Part shown: positions 361 through 6,374 of the stretch, piece by piece
How the letters are laid out: the number at the start of each line of letters is the position of its first letter
Position numbering within the stretch: the first letter of the stretch is position 1
Source of the DNA: Salinivirgaceae bacterium
GTDB lineage: Bacteria; Bacteroidota; Bacteroidia; Bacteroidales; SZUA-534
NCBI GenBank assembly: GCA_024405635.1
Contig: JAKSOL010000013.1
Coordinates: 1 to 64,000, forward strand
DNA length: 64,000 bases
Reading direction: 5' to 3'
Notes under the pieces: model-generated
The model's input: the letters and a program-made list of their open reading frames with translations, nothing else
Databases searched by the model: none
What the model was told of the DNA's origin: nothing
Translations under genes and position numbers: made by a program

Positions 361-1845
361 TTACATAACTTTTGACAAACGTGTTTTCCACAAATCGTAA
401 GCAGCCTCGTAAGCCGATTTGTTGTTAACGTCAGGTTCAACAGTTAAAATATGCTCAAGAGTGCTAAATGCCTCGGCACTATCTTTGTAAATACCAGCAC
501 CAATTCCTGCACCTTTTGCTGCACCTACCGAGCCATCGGTATCGTACAAATCGATGGTAGCACCAGTAATGCTTGCCAAAGTTGAGCGGAACATTGGATT
601 TAAGAACATATTAGCATAACCAGCATGAATGTTTGTAATCTTCATACCCATTGCCTCCATAATCTCAATTCCTTGTTTGAACGAGAACACAATACCCTCT
701 TGTGCGGCACGCAACAAATGCTCTTTGCGGTGAATGTTGAAGTTGATACCTTGAACTGAGCAACCAATTTCACGGTTTTGAAGAATACGTTCAGCACCGT
801 TACCGAAAGGAATAATGCTCAAGCCATTTGAACCAATTGGAACAGAATCGGCCAAAGCATTCATATCAGAATAAGAGCAGCCCTCAGGAGCTACATTGCG
901 TTTCATCCACGCGTTAAGAATACCTGTACCATTGATGCAAAGCAATACACCAAGACGAGTTTGCTCATCGGTGTGGTTAACGTGAGCAAATGTGTTAACA
1001 CGACTCAATTTGTCGTAATTAACCTCACCAAGCACACCATAAACAACACCAGAAGTACCTGCGGTTGCAGCAATCTCACCAGGATTCAACACATTCAAAC
1101 TCAATGCATTGTTTGGTTGGTCACCACCACGATAAGTAACAGGAGTACCTTCTTTCAAGCCAAGTTCAGCAGCTGCTTTAGCTGTCATTGTACCTTGATT
1201 GCTGAAAGTTGGAACAATGGTTGGAATTAACGACTCGTCGAAACCATAGTAATCAAGCAAGAATTTTGCAACCTTATTTTCTTTAAAGTTCCACATCATG
1301 CCCTCTGATAGACCCGATGCAGTAGTTGTTATCTCACCAGTCATCTTCATAGCGATATAGTCGCCAGGAAGCATGATTTTGTAGATTTTTTCATACAAAG
1401 CAGGCTCGTTTTCTTTAACCCAAGCCAATTTAGACGCTGTAAAGTTACCAGGTGAGTTCAACAAGTTGCTCAAGCACTTTTCAGAACCAAGTTCGTTAAA
1501 TGCTTTTTCTCCGTAAGGAACAGCACGCGAATCGCACCATATAATTGAAGGACGAAGAACATTTTTGTCTTTGTCGATACAAACAAGACCATGCATTTGG
1601 TACGAAATACCAACAGCCTTAACCTCAGCAGGAACAACGCCCGACTCTTTCATTACTTGATTTACCGAAAGTTTAAGGTTTTCCCACCACATTTCTGGCT
1701 CTTGCTCTGCCCAACCTGGCTGAACTGCGGTAATTTTAGCCTCTGTTTTAGGGAAGAATGTGCTAGCAACACACTTTCCAGTTTCAATATCAACAAGGCT
1801 AGCTTTAACTGACGAACTACCAACGTCAACTCCTAATGTGTACAT
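361..1845 (-). CDS. xylB: Xylulokinase (FGGY carbohydrate kinase)
   Basis: LGVDVGSSSVK, GISYQMHGLV, IIWCDSRA and GGDQPNNALSL motifs; ATG at 1845 preferred over TTG at 1851. Confidence 0.85.
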   Translation of the reverse strand: MYTLGVDVGSSSVKASLVDIETGKCVASTFFPKTEAKITAVQPGWAEQEPEMWWENLKLSVNQVMKESGVVPAEVKAVGISYQMHGLVCIDKDKNVLRPSIIWCDSRAVPYGEKAFNELGSEKCLSNLLNSPGNFTASKLAWVKENEPALYEKIYKIMLPGDYIAMKMTGEITTTASGLSEGMMWNFKENKVAKFLLDYYGFDESLIPTIVPTFSNQGTMTAKAAAELGLKEGTPVTYRGGDQPNNALSLNVLNPGEIAATAGTSGVVYGVLGEVNYDKLSRVNTFAHVNHTDEQTRLGVLLCINGTGILNAWMKRNVAPEGCSYSDMNALADSVPIGSNGLSIIPFGNGAERILQNREIGCSVQGINFNIHRKEHLLRAAQEGIVFSFKQGIEIMEAMGMKITNIHAGYANMFLNPMFRSTLASITGATIDLYDTDGSVGAAKGAGIGAGIYKDSAEAFSTLEHILTVEPDVNNKSAYEAAYDLWKTRLSKVM

Positions 1846-2227
1846 ATTCAAAATATTTTATTTATACATTTTTGCTTGTAAAAATAAAAGCAACTGTACA
1901 TTGATTGCTTTATTTTTTAGACAAAAAATAGTATTAATGCGCCAAACTAAAAACCTAAAAACTACCACCAAAAATATTAAACGAATTTGATTTACAACAA
2001 ATTACACGCATCAACTAGCAACAAGCACGGCATGTAAAAAAAGTTAAATTTTACTATTATACCATTTTTACATTGCTTTTATAACATAATAGACACCATA
2101 AATTTACATTTCACAAACTGACAGAAGATGGCAAGAATCTAAGGCCTCGCAAATGCATATTTTTTAAGCAAAACACGTAATTGGAACTTTTGTAACATAT
2201 ATATATTGCGCAAGGTGAAAAAGTAGA

Positions 2228-2235
2228 TAAATTTG
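2228..2235 (+). promoter_or_regulatory. Bacteroidota sigma-A -7 element for leader-lysC-lysA
   Basis: TAAATTTG fits TAnnTTTG; TTG at 2206-2208 lies 19 nt upstream. Confidence 0.7.
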
Positions 2236-2253
2236 CGCCGCAATTTTTTAAAA

Positions 2254-2325
2254 ATGAAAGGGTTGAAAAACATAGTTAAGATAAAACAGGTCAAACGCAT
2301 AAAACCTGTGTATAAACGTATGTAA
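2254..2325 (+). CDS. Putative Lys-rich attenuator leader peptide (MKGLKNIVKIKQVKRIKPVYKRM, 23 aa)
   Basis: Manual translation; 7 of 23 codons are Lys; lies between the promoter and a terminator upstream of lysC. Confidence 0.65.
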   Translation: MKGLKNIVKIKQVKRIKPVYKRM

Positions 2326-2326
2326 A

Positions 2327-2397
2327 AAGCCCTGATATAAGTATGAAATTCAGATAATTAATATGTAAGTCGGGGTTTGTATAATTCCGACTTTTTT
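2327..2397 (+). promoter_or_regulatory. Attenuator: antiterminator (2327-2336 with 2369-2378) competing with terminator (2367-2377 with 2383-2393 plus U-tract)
   Basis: Pairing checked by hand with G-U allowed; both helices use GTCGGGGTT. Confidence 0.7.
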
Positions 2398-2432
2398 GTG
2401 TATATAAGTTAAACAAAAAAATAAAACGCAAG

Positions 2433-3752
2433 ATGCAAGTACTAAAGTTTGGAGGAACCTCAGTTGGTTCACCAGAAAGAATTAAAGAGGTGGCCCGTTT
2501 AATTGACGACGGAAAACCAAAAATCGTAGTGCTATCGGCAATGTCGGGCACAACAAATGCTTTGGTTGAAATTTCTAACTATTTGTACAAAAAGAACTTT
2601 GATGCAGCAAGTGAAAAGATTAGCGCATTGGAGCAAAAATATTTTACAGTAGTTGACGAATTACTCTCAACCGAAAAATACAAAGCTCTTGGCAACGACC
2701 TTATCAAAGGACATTTTGGATATATCCGCTCGTTTGTTCGCGACATGTTCACCATGTACGAGGAAAAGGAAATTTTGGCACAAGGTGAGCAAATTTCAAC
2801 AGCATTGATGAACTACTACCTACAAGAAAGCGGTCGCCACTCCGATTTGATTTCGGCTTTGAACTTTATGCGCATCGACAAAAATGGAGAGCCAGACGAC
2901 TATTACATTCGCGAGAACATTAACCGCGAGTTGCGTCAATTAGGCGATTACTATCTTGTTATTACACAAGGATTTATATGTCGCAATACAATGGGTAAAG
3001 TTGACAATCTACAACGTGGAGGTTCCGACTACTCTGCTTCAATTATTGGTGCTGCAGTTGATGCTGAAGAAATTCAAATTTGGACTGACATTGACGGCAT
3101 GCACACCAACGACCCTCGTGTAGTTGACCATACTCACGCTATTGCCGAACTTTCGTTTGACGAAGCTGCTGAGTTGGCATACTTTGGCGCAAAAATTTTG
3201 CACCCAACTTGCGTGGTTCCTGCAAAATTGGCAAACATTCCTGTTCGTATTAAAAACACACTTGAACCATCGGCTGCAGGAACAATCATTAAAAAAGATG
3301 TTCCAAAAGTGCCAATTCGTGCAATTGCCGCAAAAGACGGCATCACTGCAATCAAAATTAAGAGCGACCGTATGTTGATGGCTCACGGTTTCTTGCGCAA
3401 AGTATTTGAGATTTTTGAAACCTACGAAACTTCTATCGATATGGTTACCACATCGGAGGTTGGTGTTTCGGTTACCATTGACAACACAAAAAATCTTGAA
3501 CCAATTCTTTCAGAATTGCGCAAATATGGTACTGTTGAGGCCGAAGGCGATTACGTAATTGTTTGTGTAGTTGGCGATCTTTCGGCTCAAGTAAACGGCA
3601 TTGCTGCTGTTGTATTAACTGCAATGAAAAACATTCCAATCCGCATGATTTCATACGGTGGTAGCAACTACAACATCTCAATGTTGGTTAAATCAGAATA
3701 CAAGAAACAAGCTTTGCAAGATTTGAGCAAAAACATTTTCAAAGAATTCTAA
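2433..3752 (+). CDS. lysC: Aspartate kinase
   Basis: VLKFGGTSVG, RGGSDYSA, WTDIDG, FGAKILHP; C-terminal ACT domains. Confidence 0.95.
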   Translation: MQVLKFGGTSVGSPERIKEVARLIDDGKPKIVVLSAMSGTTNALVEISNYLYKKNFDAASEKISALEQKYFTVVDELLSTEKYKALGNDLIKGHFGYIRSFVRDMFTMYEEKEILAQGEQISTALMNYYLQESGRHSDLISALNFMRIDKNGEPDDYYIRENINRELRQLGDYYLVITQGFICRNTMGKVDNLQRGGSDYSASIIGAAVDAEEIQIWTDIDGMHTNDPRVVDHTHAIAELSFDEAAELAYFGAKILHPTCVVPAKLANIPVRIKNTLEPSAAGTIIKKDVPKVPIRAIAAKDGITAIKIKSDRMLMAHGFLRKVFEIFETYETSIDMVTTSEVGVSVTIDNTKNLEPILSELRKYGTVEAEGDYVIVCVVGDLSAQVNGIAAVVLTAMKNIPIRMISYGGSNYNISMLVKSEYKKQALQDLSKNIFKEF

Positions 3753-3766
3753 AATCTTGAACTACA

Positions 3767-4909
3767 ATGAGTTTCGATTTAAATAAATTTCAAGAAATCA
3801 AAACACCATTTTATTGGTACGATGTTGATTTGCTAGAACAAACTTTGAAATGCGTAAAAGAAAATGCCGATAAATACGGATACAACGTTCACTATGCAGT
3901 AAAAGCCAACGGCAATTTGGGCATTTTACGCAAAATGAAAGAGTTTGATTTTGGTACTGATTGCGTTAGTGGCAACGAAATTAAACAAAGTATTGCAGCG
4001 GGCATCGATCCAAAAAAGATTGCGTTTGCAGGTGTTGGTAAAAGCGACGAGGAAATAACCATCGGTTTGGAAAATGGCATTTTTTGCTTCAACTGCGAAT
4101 CGATTCCTGAACTTGAAAACATTAACTCAATTGCAGGCAAATTGGGTAAAAAAGCCGACGTTGCTTTGCGCTTGAATCCAAATGTGCACGTTTCAACGCA
4201 CCACTATATTACTACTGGTATTGAAGAAAACAAATTCGGTATTAACGAGTGGGATTTTGAAGAGGTGATTGCTGCTTTACAAAACATGGAGAATGTAAAT
4301 CTAATAGGATTGCACTTTCATGTTGGTTCGCAAATTCTTGATATGCAGGATTTTAGAAATCTTTGTGTACGCGTAAACGAATTGCAAGAATGGTTTTATG
4401 CTCACAACATAATTGTTGACCACATTAATGTTGGTGGAGGTTTGGGCATTAGTTATACACAACCAAACGAAGAACCAATTCCTGCATTTGCCGAATACTT
4501 CAAGGTTTTTGCTGAAACTTTGAAACTTCGTCCAAAGCAACAACTTCACTTTGAGTTGGGACGTTCGTTGGTTGCTCAATGCGGCAGTTTGATTACCAAA
4601 GTGCTATACGTAAAACGCGGCGTTAACACCAAGTTTGCCATTGTTGATGCAGGTATGACTGAATTGATTCGCCCTGCATTGTACCAAGCTGTTCATAAAA
4701 TTGAAAACATATCGAGCAACTTGCCTAGCGAGAGATACGATGTTGTTGGCCCAATTTGTGAATCGTCAGACTGCTTTGCAAAAGGTATTGACATGGCCGG
4801 AACAAAACGTGGCGACTTGTTGGCAATTCGCTCAGCTGGCGCTTATGGCGAGGCTATGGCTTCAACCTATAACTTAAGAACATTGGTAAAGGGTTATTTT
4901 TCAAAATAA
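3767..4909 (+). CDS. lysA: Diaminopimelate decarboxylase
   Basis: YAVKAN (PLP Lys), HFHVGSQ, INVGGG, GPICESSD, GAYG. Confidence 0.95.
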   Translation: MSFDLNKFQEIKTPFYWYDVDLLEQTLKCVKENADKYGYNVHYAVKANGNLGILRKMKEFDFGTDCVSGNEIKQSIAAGIDPKKIAFAGVGKSDEEITIGLENGIFCFNCESIPELENINSIAGKLGKKADVALRLNPNVHVSTHHYITTGIEENKFGINEWDFEEVIAALQNMENVNLIGLHFHVGSQILDMQDFRNLCVRVNELQEWFYAHNIIVDHINVGGGLGISYTQPNEEPIPAFAEYFKVFAETLKLRPKQQLHFELGRSLVAQCGSLITKVLYVKRGVNTKFAIVDAGMTELIRPALYQAVHKIENISSNLPSERYDVVGPICESSDCFAKGIDMAGTKRGDLLAIRSAGAYGEAMASTYNLRTLVKGYFSK

Positions 4910-4929
4910 CAAGCAACCGATATACAAAC

Positions 4930-4964
4930 AAAAAGCCGCAATTTTATTGATTGCGGCTTTTTTT
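4930..4964. terminator. Bidirectional intrinsic terminator
   Basis: AAAAGCCGCAAT...ATTGCGGCTTTTTTT. Confidence 0.85.
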
Positions 4965-4982
4965 ATGCATTAAACGTTGTGT

Positions 4983-6374
4983 TTACATCAATCGCTTTAC
5001 CAAAGCAAAAAATTTATATGGCATGTAGCGGAATGGCAAATCGAACCAAGTAGGAGTAGACACAACACCTCTGCAATGAGTAAACGCATCAAAACTCAAC
5101 TTACCATGATAATGTCCCATTCCTGAATTACCAACGCCACCAAACGGCAAGTTTGCATTAACTATGTGCATAATGGTGTCGTTGATGCAACCTCCTCCCG
5201 ACGATGTGCGTTTTATCATATTCCAACCATCGCGCTCGTTGCCAAAATAGTAGAATGCAAGAGGTTTTTCGCGGTCGAGAACAAAATCAACAACTTGGTC
5301 GGCAAATGACTTTTGACCATCGGAGAAAGTAATTACTGGGAAAATTGGGCCAAAAATTTCCTCGGTCATTATTGGCGACGAAAGGTCTTCAACTTCAATC
5401 AAAGTGGGCTCAATGTAACGTTGTGATGCATCGGTTTGGCCACCACAAATAATCTTTCCGTTTGATAAATAGCCACTTACACGTTCAAAAGCCTTGTCGG
5501 TTACCATTCGCACAAAGTGCTTGCTTTCGGCAACATTTTGGCCATGTAAAAGTTCAAGACTACGTTTAAATTCAGCCACAAATTGTTCATTTACATCGGC
5601 ATGAATCAAAATATAATCGGGAGCAATGCAAGTTTGACCCGAATTAAGAGTTTTTCCCCATGCAATGCGGCGAGCTGCAAGTTTTATGTTTGCAGTACGG
5701 TCAATTACACAAGGACTTTTACCGCCAAGTTCGAGCACAAGTGGCGTAAGATGCTCGGCGGCAGCGGCCATAACAGTTTTGGCCAAAGCTGGGCTTCCGG
5801 TAAAGAATATCAAGTCAAATTTTTGACGAAACAGGTATGCGTTTACTTCTCTATTTCCTTGAACAACAGCCACATAATTAGAATCGAAGGTATCAGCAAT
5901 CATCTGCTCAATTACAGCCGAAACATTTGGAACGTATGGCGATGGCTTGAGCACAGCAGTGCATCCTGCTGCAATGGCTCCAACAAGTGGATTGAGTAAA
6001 AGTTGTATTGGGTAGTTCCATGGCGACACAATAAGAGCACTTCCAAGAGGCTCTTTAACAATGTAACTGCTTGAACCAAATATGGCAATTGGAGAATGTT
6101 TACGCTCGCGTTTTGCCCACGAGCGCACATGTTTACGAGCCTCGCGTATTTCAGCATTAACCAAACAAATTTCAGTAAGATAAGCCTCCTCATACGATTT
6201 ATGCAAATCGGTCCAAATAGCTTCGGCCAGCTTACTCTCCCATTTTTTCATGGCAGCAGCAAACTTTTTAAGCATTGAAATTCGATATTGCACACTAAAA
6301 GTTGCGCCAGTTCTAAAATACTGACGTTGAGCTTTTAGCATCGCATCAATTTGTATTGACGAAGTATTTTCCAT
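4983..6374 (-). CDS. Aldehyde dehydrogenase (ALDH3/fatty-aldehyde-like)
   Basis: SPWNYP, FTGS, LELGGKSP, GQTCIAPDY, EEIFGP, PFGGVGNSGMG. Confidence 0.9.
   Translation of the reverse strand: MENTSSIQIDAMLKAQRQYFRTGATFSVQYRISMLKKFAAAMKKWESKLAEAIWTDLHKSYEEAYLTEICLVNAEIREARKHVRSWAKRERKHSPIAIFGSSSYIVKEPLGSALIVSPWNYPIQLLLNPLVGAIAAGCTAVLKPSPYVPNVSAVIEQMIADTFDSNYVAVVQGNREVNAYLFRQKFDLIFFTGSPALAKTVMAAAAEHLTPLVLELGGKSPCVIDRTANIKLAARRIAWGKTLNSGQTCIAPDYILIHADVNEQFVAEFKRSLELLHGQNVAESKHFVRMVTDKAFERVSGYLSNGKIICGGQTDASQRYIEPTLIEVEDLSSPIMTEEIFGPIFPVITFSDGQKSFADQVVDFVLDREKPLAFYYFGNERDGWNMIKRTSSGGGCINDTIMHIVNANLPFGGVGNSGMGHYHGKLSFDAFTHCRGVVSTPTWFDLPFRYMPYKFFALVKRLM

Follow-up and report, generated by a model that had tools for sequence, protein, structure and literature searches.

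A probable lysine-reading leader-peptide attenuator upstream of lysC in a Salinivirgaceae-like family of the Bacteroidales

The stretch of DNA considered here, referred to below as the window, comprises positions 1 to 64,000 of contig JAKSOL010000013.1 in an assembly (GCA_024405635.1) of a Salinivirgaceae bacterium, a member of the Bacteroidales. Near its beginning lie the genes lysC and lysA, which correspond to the first and last steps of lysine synthesis, and immediately upstream of lysC is a leader approximately 155 nt in length. Judged from its sequence, its predicted folds and its relatives, this leader is probably a ribosome-mediated leader-peptide transcription attenuator of lysC-lysA, in which translation of a short, lysine-rich open reading frame would read the supply of charged Lys-tRNA.

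Architecture of the lysC leader

The first-pass annotation of the window, made from the sequence alone, had listed a promoter, a lysine-rich upstream open reading frame (uORF) with an internal hairpin, a segment complementary to a terminator arm and the terminator itself; all of these were recovered in place by reading positions 1900-2700 directly, by a terminator scan and by folding. Bacteroidetes promoters have the consensus TTTG at -33 and TAnnTTTG at -7, with transcription in Bacteroides starting a few bases beyond the latter box. The leader, all features of which lie on the forward strand, has a sequence match to a -7 box of this type, TAAATTTG (TAnnTTTG), at 2228-2235 and, 19 nt 5' of it, a weak candidate for a -33-like element at 2205-2208 (ATTG, matching three of the four bases of TTTG). 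The transcription start can be placed at about 2240-2243, a few bases 3' of the TAnnTTTG box, which would leave only some 11-14 nt between the RNA 5' end and the ATG of the uORF; in relatives the corresponding distance may be as small as 2-4 nt. No Shine-Dalgarno sequence for the uORF is visible on inspection of the window sequence. The uORF, MKGLKNIVKIKQVKRIKPVYKRM, occupies 2254-2325, beginning with an ATG at 2254 and consisting of 23 codons followed by TAA (2323-2325), and it includes seven lysine codons, six AAA and one AAG (K2, K5, K9, K11, K14, K17 and K21).

Four segments with mutually exclusive pairings can be recognised around this frame. Segment 2, the 5' strand of the antiterminator (AAGCCCUGAU in the RNA, AAGCCCTGAT in the DNA), begins 2 nt past the stop codon at 2327-2336 and is complementary at 10 of 10 positions, three of the pairs being G-U, to GTCGGGGTTT at 2369-2378. 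The latter largely coincides with segment 3 (2367-2377), the 5' arm of an intrinsic terminator that is thus common to both structures. This terminator (2367-2397) has an 11-pair stem formed by 2367-2377 and 2383-2393 that encloses a loop of 5 nt; its T run stops at 2397, leaving 35 nt to the lysC ATG (2433). Absent from the list in the first-pass annotation, and found in the minimum-energy fold, is a further pairing between segment 1, AGGGUU at 2259-2264 in uORF codons 2-4, and AGCCCU at 2328-2333. Together, the 1:2, 2:3 and 3:4 pairings make this a four-segment leader in the classical sense. The hairpin within the uORF at 2286-2309 (ACAGGU at 2286-2291 with ACCUGU at 2304-2309), evident in both sequence and fold, possibly serves as an RNA polymerase pause or timing hairpin. 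In an independent DNA run (X2) the leader differs only at 2348 and 2415, both of which are outside the uORF and the boxes, a degree of variation too small to be informative.

If these elements act as their arrangement suggests, RNA synthesis would start a few bases 3' of TAnnTTTG and the first open reading frame on the RNA would be the 23-codon lysine-rich frame. When lysine is ample, the ribosome would reach the stop codon (2323-2325) and its footprint would hide segment 2 (2327-2336), leaving segment 3 to pair with segment 4, so that the terminator (2367-2393 and the U run) would end transcription 35 nt short of lysC. A shortage of Lys-tRNA would halt the ribosome at an upstream lysine codon, and the free segment 2 would pair with segment 3 (2369-2378) once this had been made; the terminator would then fail to form and the polymerase would continue into lysC and lysA. 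Were the uORF not translated at all, segment 1 (2259-2264) would pair with segment 2 and the terminator would form. The transcription start, the translation of the uORF, the stalling and the response to lysine are inferred.

Several tests set these features apart from the background of the window and the genome. Of 200 dinucleotide shuffles of 2242-2400, 199 fold less stably than the native sequence (z = -2.89), and the minimum-energy structure of this interval contains the terminator, the uORF-internal hairpin and the 1:2 pairing. The genome (40% G+C) has 1573 intergenic ATG-initiated open reading frames 15-40 codons long, among which the uORF ranks eighth by lysine fraction, with only eight, itself included, having at least 7 lysines per 23 codons; lysine accounts for 7.7% of these 1573 frames and 6.5% of the crude proteome. 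Lysine (AAR) triplets number seven in frame versus two and three in the other frames (dinucleotide-shuffle p = 0.0095). At -13.2 kcal/mol, the pairing of segment 2 with the terminator arm beats 997 of 1000 shuffles of the same 37 nt, for which the value is -7.2 +/- 1.6 kcal/mol (p = 0.003).

The two rival structures are predicted to be finely balanced, at -12.8 kcal/mol for the terminator and -11.2 kcal/mol for the antiterminator helix, with an overall cost of 1.8 kcal/mol for forcing the antiterminator. A ribosome was simulated by barring 28 nt from pairing, a span reaching 15 nt to the 5' side and 12 nt to the 3' side of the first A-site nucleotide, this footprint being an assumption; the resulting folds represent the full leader at equilibrium and ignore the order of synthesis, which is decisive in known attenuators. 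With the mask at the stop codon the full terminator formed (11 of 11 pairs), and with the mask at K21, the last lysine codon, the full antiterminator did (10 of 10 pairs), as it also did with masks at K14, K11 and K5.

When positions 1800-2600 were compared with Rfam at E values up to 10, no lysine riboswitch (RF00168), T-box or amino-acid leader family was matched. Two other candidates from the same interval were rejected: an L20_leader match confined to the terminator (24.4 bits, against a gathering score of 58.7) and a snoRNA match regarded as spurious.

Conservation and distribution of lysC leaders

The GTDB family to which the window belongs, whose closest named records are rumen and gut metagenome-assembled genomes labelled Salinivirgaceae, is represented by 33 species genomes, of which 30 have a lysC ortholog at E <= 1e-100; the upstream region was read in all 30. 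The combination of lysine-rich uORF, stop box and terminator ahead of lysC, the recurrence of which would be expected from the first-pass annotation, is found in 14 of these 30 genomes and in six of eight genera. The shared layout consists of TAnnTTTG, a uORF of 19-35 codons with 4-8 lysines, a box at or adjoining the uORF stop that is usually YCCTGA, and a terminator whose 5' arm, complementary to that box, is usually GTCAGGG or GTCGGGG, situated 20-39 nt from lysC, and 95 nt in one. In 12 of 16 leaders an exact TAnnTTTG begins 17-26 nt 5' of the ATG of the uORF, such that, if transcription starts a few bases past the box, uORFs would lie approximately 2-14 nt from the RNA 5' end.

The leader peptides themselves differ widely, the constant elements being the lysine codons and a [S/T/K]-G motif near the N-terminus, which overlies RNA segment 1 (CAGGR); such divergence apart from the lysine codons fits a leader peptide, and not a functional small protein. 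Over 16 uORFs, a set that leaves out L121 and L122, AAR triplets number 92 in frame compared with 34 and 35 off frame, the coding frame has the highest count in 16 of 16, and in-frame lysine exceeds dinucleotide shuffles at p < 0.05 in 10 of 16; the counts are not independent, because the loci are related. Given this frame specificity, the lysine content is not a matter of A-richness only, an explanation that the first-pass annotation had named as fatal to its proposal.

Conservation of the alternative pairings was assessed using an alignment of 14 leaders (A1) and the individual loci. At 10 of 16 loci the duplex between stop box and terminator arm is stronger than in shuffles (p < 0.05), the exceptions being L012, L013, L015, L019, L021 and L027; at all 16 the paired bases fall between -14 and +15 nt, counted from the first base of the stop codon. 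In A1 the antiterminator is paired in 91.0% of 133 cells, compared with 26-56% when the partner is slid by one to three columns, and segment 1:2 is paired in 78.3% of cells, compared with 24-46% in slid controls; the CAGGR box homologous to segment 1 is found at uORF codons 3-5 in relatives. The first-pass annotation had looked to covarying helices as a sign of function. The terminator stem is conserved in A1, 5 of its 11 pairs showing compensatory changes; covariation of the antiterminator is not significant. The alternative pairings are hence backed, at the level of sequence comparison, by conserved complementarity and a fixed position relative to the stop codon and not by independent covariation. 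The hairpin within the uORF, ACAGRY/RYCUGU, is present in six of the 14 aligned leaders, where one pair occurs as GC, GU or AU and a second as UA or CG; a different hairpin takes this position in other aligned leaders.

In two species of genus g7 (L012 and L015), the ancestral uORF start meets a stop at codon 3, and a second ATG opens a 15-codon frame that has two lysines, is rich in Phe and Leu and ends exactly before the conserved stop box; the L012 terminator is without a good T run. The attenuator of these genomes may be decaying or retuned. Apart from the leaders with lysine uORFs or retained boxes, the family includes 11 genomes of one genus with a uORF-less leader, one with another type of leader (L119) and one with none (L024).

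The uORF-less leaders (L002-L008, L115, L117, L118 and L120; alignment A2) consist of a TAnnTTTG box, a long hairpin of approximately 40 nt whose inner stem varies (CUGAAAAUCG...CGAUUUAUCAG) and a terminator, with no conserved open reading frame and no match in Rfam. In a six-sequence alignment the hairpin displays one-sided changes and two double changes. These leaders possibly represent a riboswitch or a protein-binding leader. Two other species of the same sister genus retain a lysine uORF, L009 with 7 lysines in 26 codons and L116/L032 with 4 in 21.

Among the best 80 named genome contigs by lysC match, lysine-rich uORFs were present only in three, all belonging to this family (L032, L046 and L097). 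In Prevotella, Barnesiella and Tannerellaceae metagenome-assembled genomes, among others, lysC directly follows a gene for an ABC-type ATPase-like protein (product end MSTHNI...) with neither terminator nor leader between (loci including L050, L051, L053-L055, L058, L059, L065 and L066). No convincing lysine uORF was seen among 78 metagenome lysC loci, from 80 returned of which two lacked a lysC start, and this set contained no close relative of the window's genus; eight had a terminator-like hairpin, three of them being of the uORF-less type. To judge from these upstream regions, lysC regulation is widely variable within the Bacteroidales.

An even sample of 251 Bacteroidales genomes yielded 88 lysC orthologs, and 80 of the 83 new places were analysed (G281, G101 and G201 being left out). 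A terminator-like hairpin lies within 200 nt in 12 of these 80. Six (L259, L264, L268, L270, L271 and L276, representing five families by their labels) have a uORF with 4-8 lysines ending 21-40 nt before a GCCUGCAG-type terminator, itself 20-39 nt before lysC, and several of these distant uORFs are also rich in Met and Thr. L027, from a further family, has the same type of leader. On the basis of uORF content and spacing only in the case of the six, these loci and L027 are candidate attenuators that may be multivalent for the aspartate family of amino acids. The balance tips slightly towards a broader proposal: that an undescribed class of Lys-tRNA-sensing leader-peptide attenuators, with leader reading frames starting almost at the RNA 5' end, replaces the lysine riboswitch at lysC across the Bacteroidales, with a lysine-only form in the Salinivirgaceae-like family and candidate multivalent Lys/Met/Thr forms in at least six to seven other families.

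Leader peptides are found ahead of other amino-acid biosynthesis genes in the same genome, as revealed by a genome-wide scan for uORFs and terminators before genes, followed by assignment of the genes to families (loci L111-L114). The frame MNNTLHHHHHHCNSSR, with six His in a row, precedes hisG (contig C34:99859); MTRFFTHFFFFFTQQ, in which 7 of 15 residues are Phe, precedes the prephenate dehydratase gene pheA (C32:122686); MKQLVNNIVKVLLVVVCE, rich in Val, Leu and Ile, precedes ilvD (C13:47009); and a leader ending ...ITFIPFTTTTTPWGVM, with five Thr in a row, precedes thrA, encoding a bifunctional aspartate kinase/homoserine dehydrogenase (C35:108787). The pheA leader shares the design of the lysC leader, its stop codon being directly before the complement of the terminator 5' arm, and has a sub-threshold match of 30.4 bits to the Rfam Phe_leader family; downstream of the thrA leader no T-run terminator could be clearly recognised. 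The presence of His, Phe, Ile/Val/Leu and Thr leaders in one genome suggests that the organism uses leader-peptide attenuation routinely, and of its two aspartate kinases one has a Thr-rich and the other a Lys-rich leader.

The scan also brought up sequences of other kinds. A repeat present at C36:109401, C23:174914 and C16:7009 comprises a (CA)n-like tract that encodes THTHTH... within short open reading frames having the motif NNFV.SQNLLNTH in common, and each copy has a strong hairpin (-24 to -25 kcal/mol) after it. On C34, upstream of a gene at 69098-70649 on the minus strand, a 29-codon frame encoding an extremely basic product (10 Lys, 5 Arg and 4 His) is followed by a hairpin; this is more likely to be a real gene for a small basic protein than a leader peptide.

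The identities of the two genes downstream of the leader are borne out by Pfam and NCBIfam. Positions 2433-3752 (forward strand) encode LysC, a monofunctional aspartate kinase with Pfam AA_kinase and ACT domains, the best NCBIfam match of which is lysine-sensitive aspartokinase 3 (399 bits, under the cut-off of 455). After a gap of 14 nt, lysA at 3767-4909, on the same strand, encodes diaminopimelate decarboxylase (TIGR01048, 399 bits with a cut-off of 297.9; Pfam agrees). A terminator-like hairpin of 13 pairs just past lysA (4930-4962), reported on the minus strand by the terminator scan, sits between lysA and a convergent gene at 4983-6374, a position from which it is taken to be the operon end; in DNA run X2 a 2-nt insertion at 4947 falls in its loop region. 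The window lysC begins with ATG, and the start is GTG in 20 of the 25 family loci listed.

Weighing of alternative explanations

A number of observations weigh against a lysine-reading attenuator at lysC. The seven lysine codons of the uORF are scattered, with no run. A-rich sequence is expected near start codons in this phylum, which raises the background of AAA codons, and dinucleotide shuffles already average 2.7-5.2 lysines per uORF. Three family genomes retain the boxes and terminator with only two or three lysines, 2 of 15 codons in L012 and L015 and 3 of 31 in L121, and 11 species of one sister genus have the uORF-less lysC leader. Covariation is not significant in A1 for either the antiterminator, where double changes occur at two pairs and an equal share of paired cells is attained by 80 of 500 column shuffles, or segment 1:2. 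In the simulated folds, masks at K17, K9 and K2 gave the terminator (three of seven lysine stalls); the switch proposed in the first-pass annotation, from terminator with a ribosome at the stop codon to antiterminator with one stalled at lysine, was therefore reproduced at equilibrium for the stop codon and for K5, K11, K14 and K21, and failed at the remaining three. Other genes of the pathway in this genome, dapA, asd and dapB, are without such a leader. Finally, contigs from two metatranscriptome runs cover parts of lysC and lysA (2421-2646, 2630-2862, 2958-3234, 3020-3445, the 32-nt piece 3645-3676, 4700-4859 and 4826-5000), with none extending over the leader, so that they are neutral as to a 3' end at 2397 and as to uORF expression.

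Some of these points would be accommodated by a translation-coupled attenuator without lysine specificity, in which translation of the uORF itself, through ribosome availability or coupling, sets termination, and lysine is a by-product of A-rich, unstructured coding sequence. The scattering of the lysine codons, the family members that keep the boxes with two or three of them and the failure of equilibrium folds to separate all lysine stalls from the stop position are all as such a device would have it, and the uORFs are 43-48% A in most loci. The excess of AAR in frame (92 versus 34 and 35, with the coding frame highest in all 16 uORFs) is not, however, explained in this way, the regulated genes stand at the two ends of the lysine pathway, and the other leaders of this genome are each rich in the amino acid that their operon makes. 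Non-specific sensing of translation is accordingly considered unlikely, albeit the best of the alternatives.

A slightly smaller likelihood attaches to riboswitch-like or protein-mediated antitermination, with a ligand, protein or small RNA operating the switch in the leader RNA and the uORF being incidental. The sister genus with its hairpin and terminator and no uORF indicates that regulation without a ribosome sensor exists at the lysC locus, and the window leader is more structured than its shuffles (z = -2.89). Against this, no Rfam family is matched, and the lysine riboswitch RF00168 was detected in none of 41 related genomes, using a model that matched in four control genomes. Moreover, the sequence between the boxes is poorly conserved, the features retained being the uORF frame, its lysine codons and the stop next to segment 2, and the conserved unpaired nucleotides needed for a ligand pocket are not seen in A1.

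It is very unlikely that the uORF is an independent gene for a small protein or small RNA, with a terminator of its own and lysC transcribed from a separate promoter, even if promoter, reading frame and terminator would together make a complete short transcription unit. The unit is always directly upstream of lysC, and its peptide is unconserved save for the lysine codons and the [S/T/K]-G motif that coincides with segment 1. A sigma-70-like match (10 of 12 positions) at 2358-2385 could be offered as the separate promoter, but promoter-like matches are no commoner than in shuffles (12 versus 10.8), and promoters of this phylum do not follow the sigma-70 consensus. The absence of a TAnnTTTG box from the 35-nt gap that separates lysC from the terminator implies that lysC depends on read-through. 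Nor is the terminator at 2367 the end of an upstream gene, since the gene on that side (361-1851) is on the opposite strand. Chance arrangement in an AT-rich intergenic region, where short open reading frames and weak hairpins are common and where 1800-5200 holds 6 terminator-like matches versus 3.3 +/- 2.2 in shuffles, is scarcely credible given that the comparative data already contradict it, the layout being kept across six genera despite divergent sequence, and given the shuffle tests of fold, lysine frame and stop-box duplex and the rank of the uORF as eighth of 1573.

Comparison with known attenuators and riboswitches

Lysine biosynthesis is the textbook case of control by a riboswitch, the L box, and leader-peptide attenuation is the textbook mechanism for Trp, His, Thr, Leu, Phe and Ile/Val. 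The first-pass annotation had known of no characterised leader-peptide attenuator for lysine, and full-text literature searches returned none either, Rodionov 2003 and Vitreschak 2004 lying outside their scope. In Flavobacterium psychrophilum, leader-peptide elements have been annotated with transcriptome support at ilvE and hisG, with no entries for lysC in the available portion of supplementary file 8 (PMC9723704). Neither lysC nor Bacteroidetes is mentioned in the available parts of Naville and Gautheret 2010 (PMC2965389), and in the corresponding parts of a Bacteroides thetaiotaomicron transcriptome study small open reading frames reminiscent of leader peptides are reported (PMC7366714). 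A lysine leader peptide is likewise not described in the portions available of PMC4833913, PMC9723704, PMC2965389, PMC8632094, PMC2211319, PMC2659441 and PMC7366714. Within the literature searched, therefore, the kind of mechanism is that of the textbook, and its lysine specificity and its lineage are undescribed.

Should the lysine-reading attenuator be borne out, lysine would have its first leader-peptide attenuator, and this would mean that the ribosome-sensing solution has also evolved for this amino acid, in a phylum without a lysine riboswitch in the 41 genomes searched. It would further imply that the sensor was exchanged for a uORF-less RNA leader within one genus. The lysC leaders, ranging from lysine-only uORFs through possible Lys/Met/Thr forms and degenerate uORFs to the uORF-less type, would then constitute a natural series for sensor exchange at a single locus. 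In practical terms, the leader would be a testable regulatory part for gut and rumen Bacteroidales, and reading frames of 19-35 codons at this position would be marked as leader peptides in annotation and not ignored.

The mechanism of classical leader-peptide attenuators is well established, and the lysC leader resembles them in most structural respects. Like thrL (RF00506) and the trp, his, leu, pheA and ilv leaders, it has a short open reading frame containing codons for the end product and a terminator before the first gene. As in these leaders, the antiterminator uses the 5' arm of the terminator, and a 1:2 pairing would favour termination when the frame is untranslated. A stop codon from which the ribosome would cover the 5' strand of the antiterminator, also a property of these leaders, is suggested by the position of the pairing and by the mask at the stop codon, with the folds for lysine stalls going both ways. 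The similarity to thrL extends to the regulated gene, an aspartate kinase, and to the dispersal of regulatory codons, which are not strictly tandem in either case. By structural criteria, then, the lysC leader would be of the leader-peptide attenuator kind, lying outside the Rfam Thr, His, Leu, Trp and Phe_leader families. It departs from the classical leaders in its lysine codons, its Bacteroidetes-type promoter, the lack of a visible Shine-Dalgarno sequence and the lack of a match to any Rfam leader family. The pheA, hisG, thrA and ilvD leaders of the same genome are of the same design, but contain runs of the cognate residue (6 His, 7 Phe and 5 Thr), whereas the lysC uORF has seven lysines spread over 23 codons.

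The L box (RF00168) is found at lysC of Bacillus subtilis and E. coli, acting in B. subtilis through premature termination in the leader. It thus shares with the lysC leader described here the gene, the presumed signal of lysine sufficiency and, as in B. subtilis, termination as the output. It is, by contrast, a five-helix aptamer of approximately 180 nt, unlike a leader of approximately 155 nt with a predicted translated open reading frame, and the two would differ in what is sensed: the free amino acid in the case of the L box and, in the attenuator proposed for the Salinivirgaceae-like lysC, Lys-tRNA as read by the ribosome.

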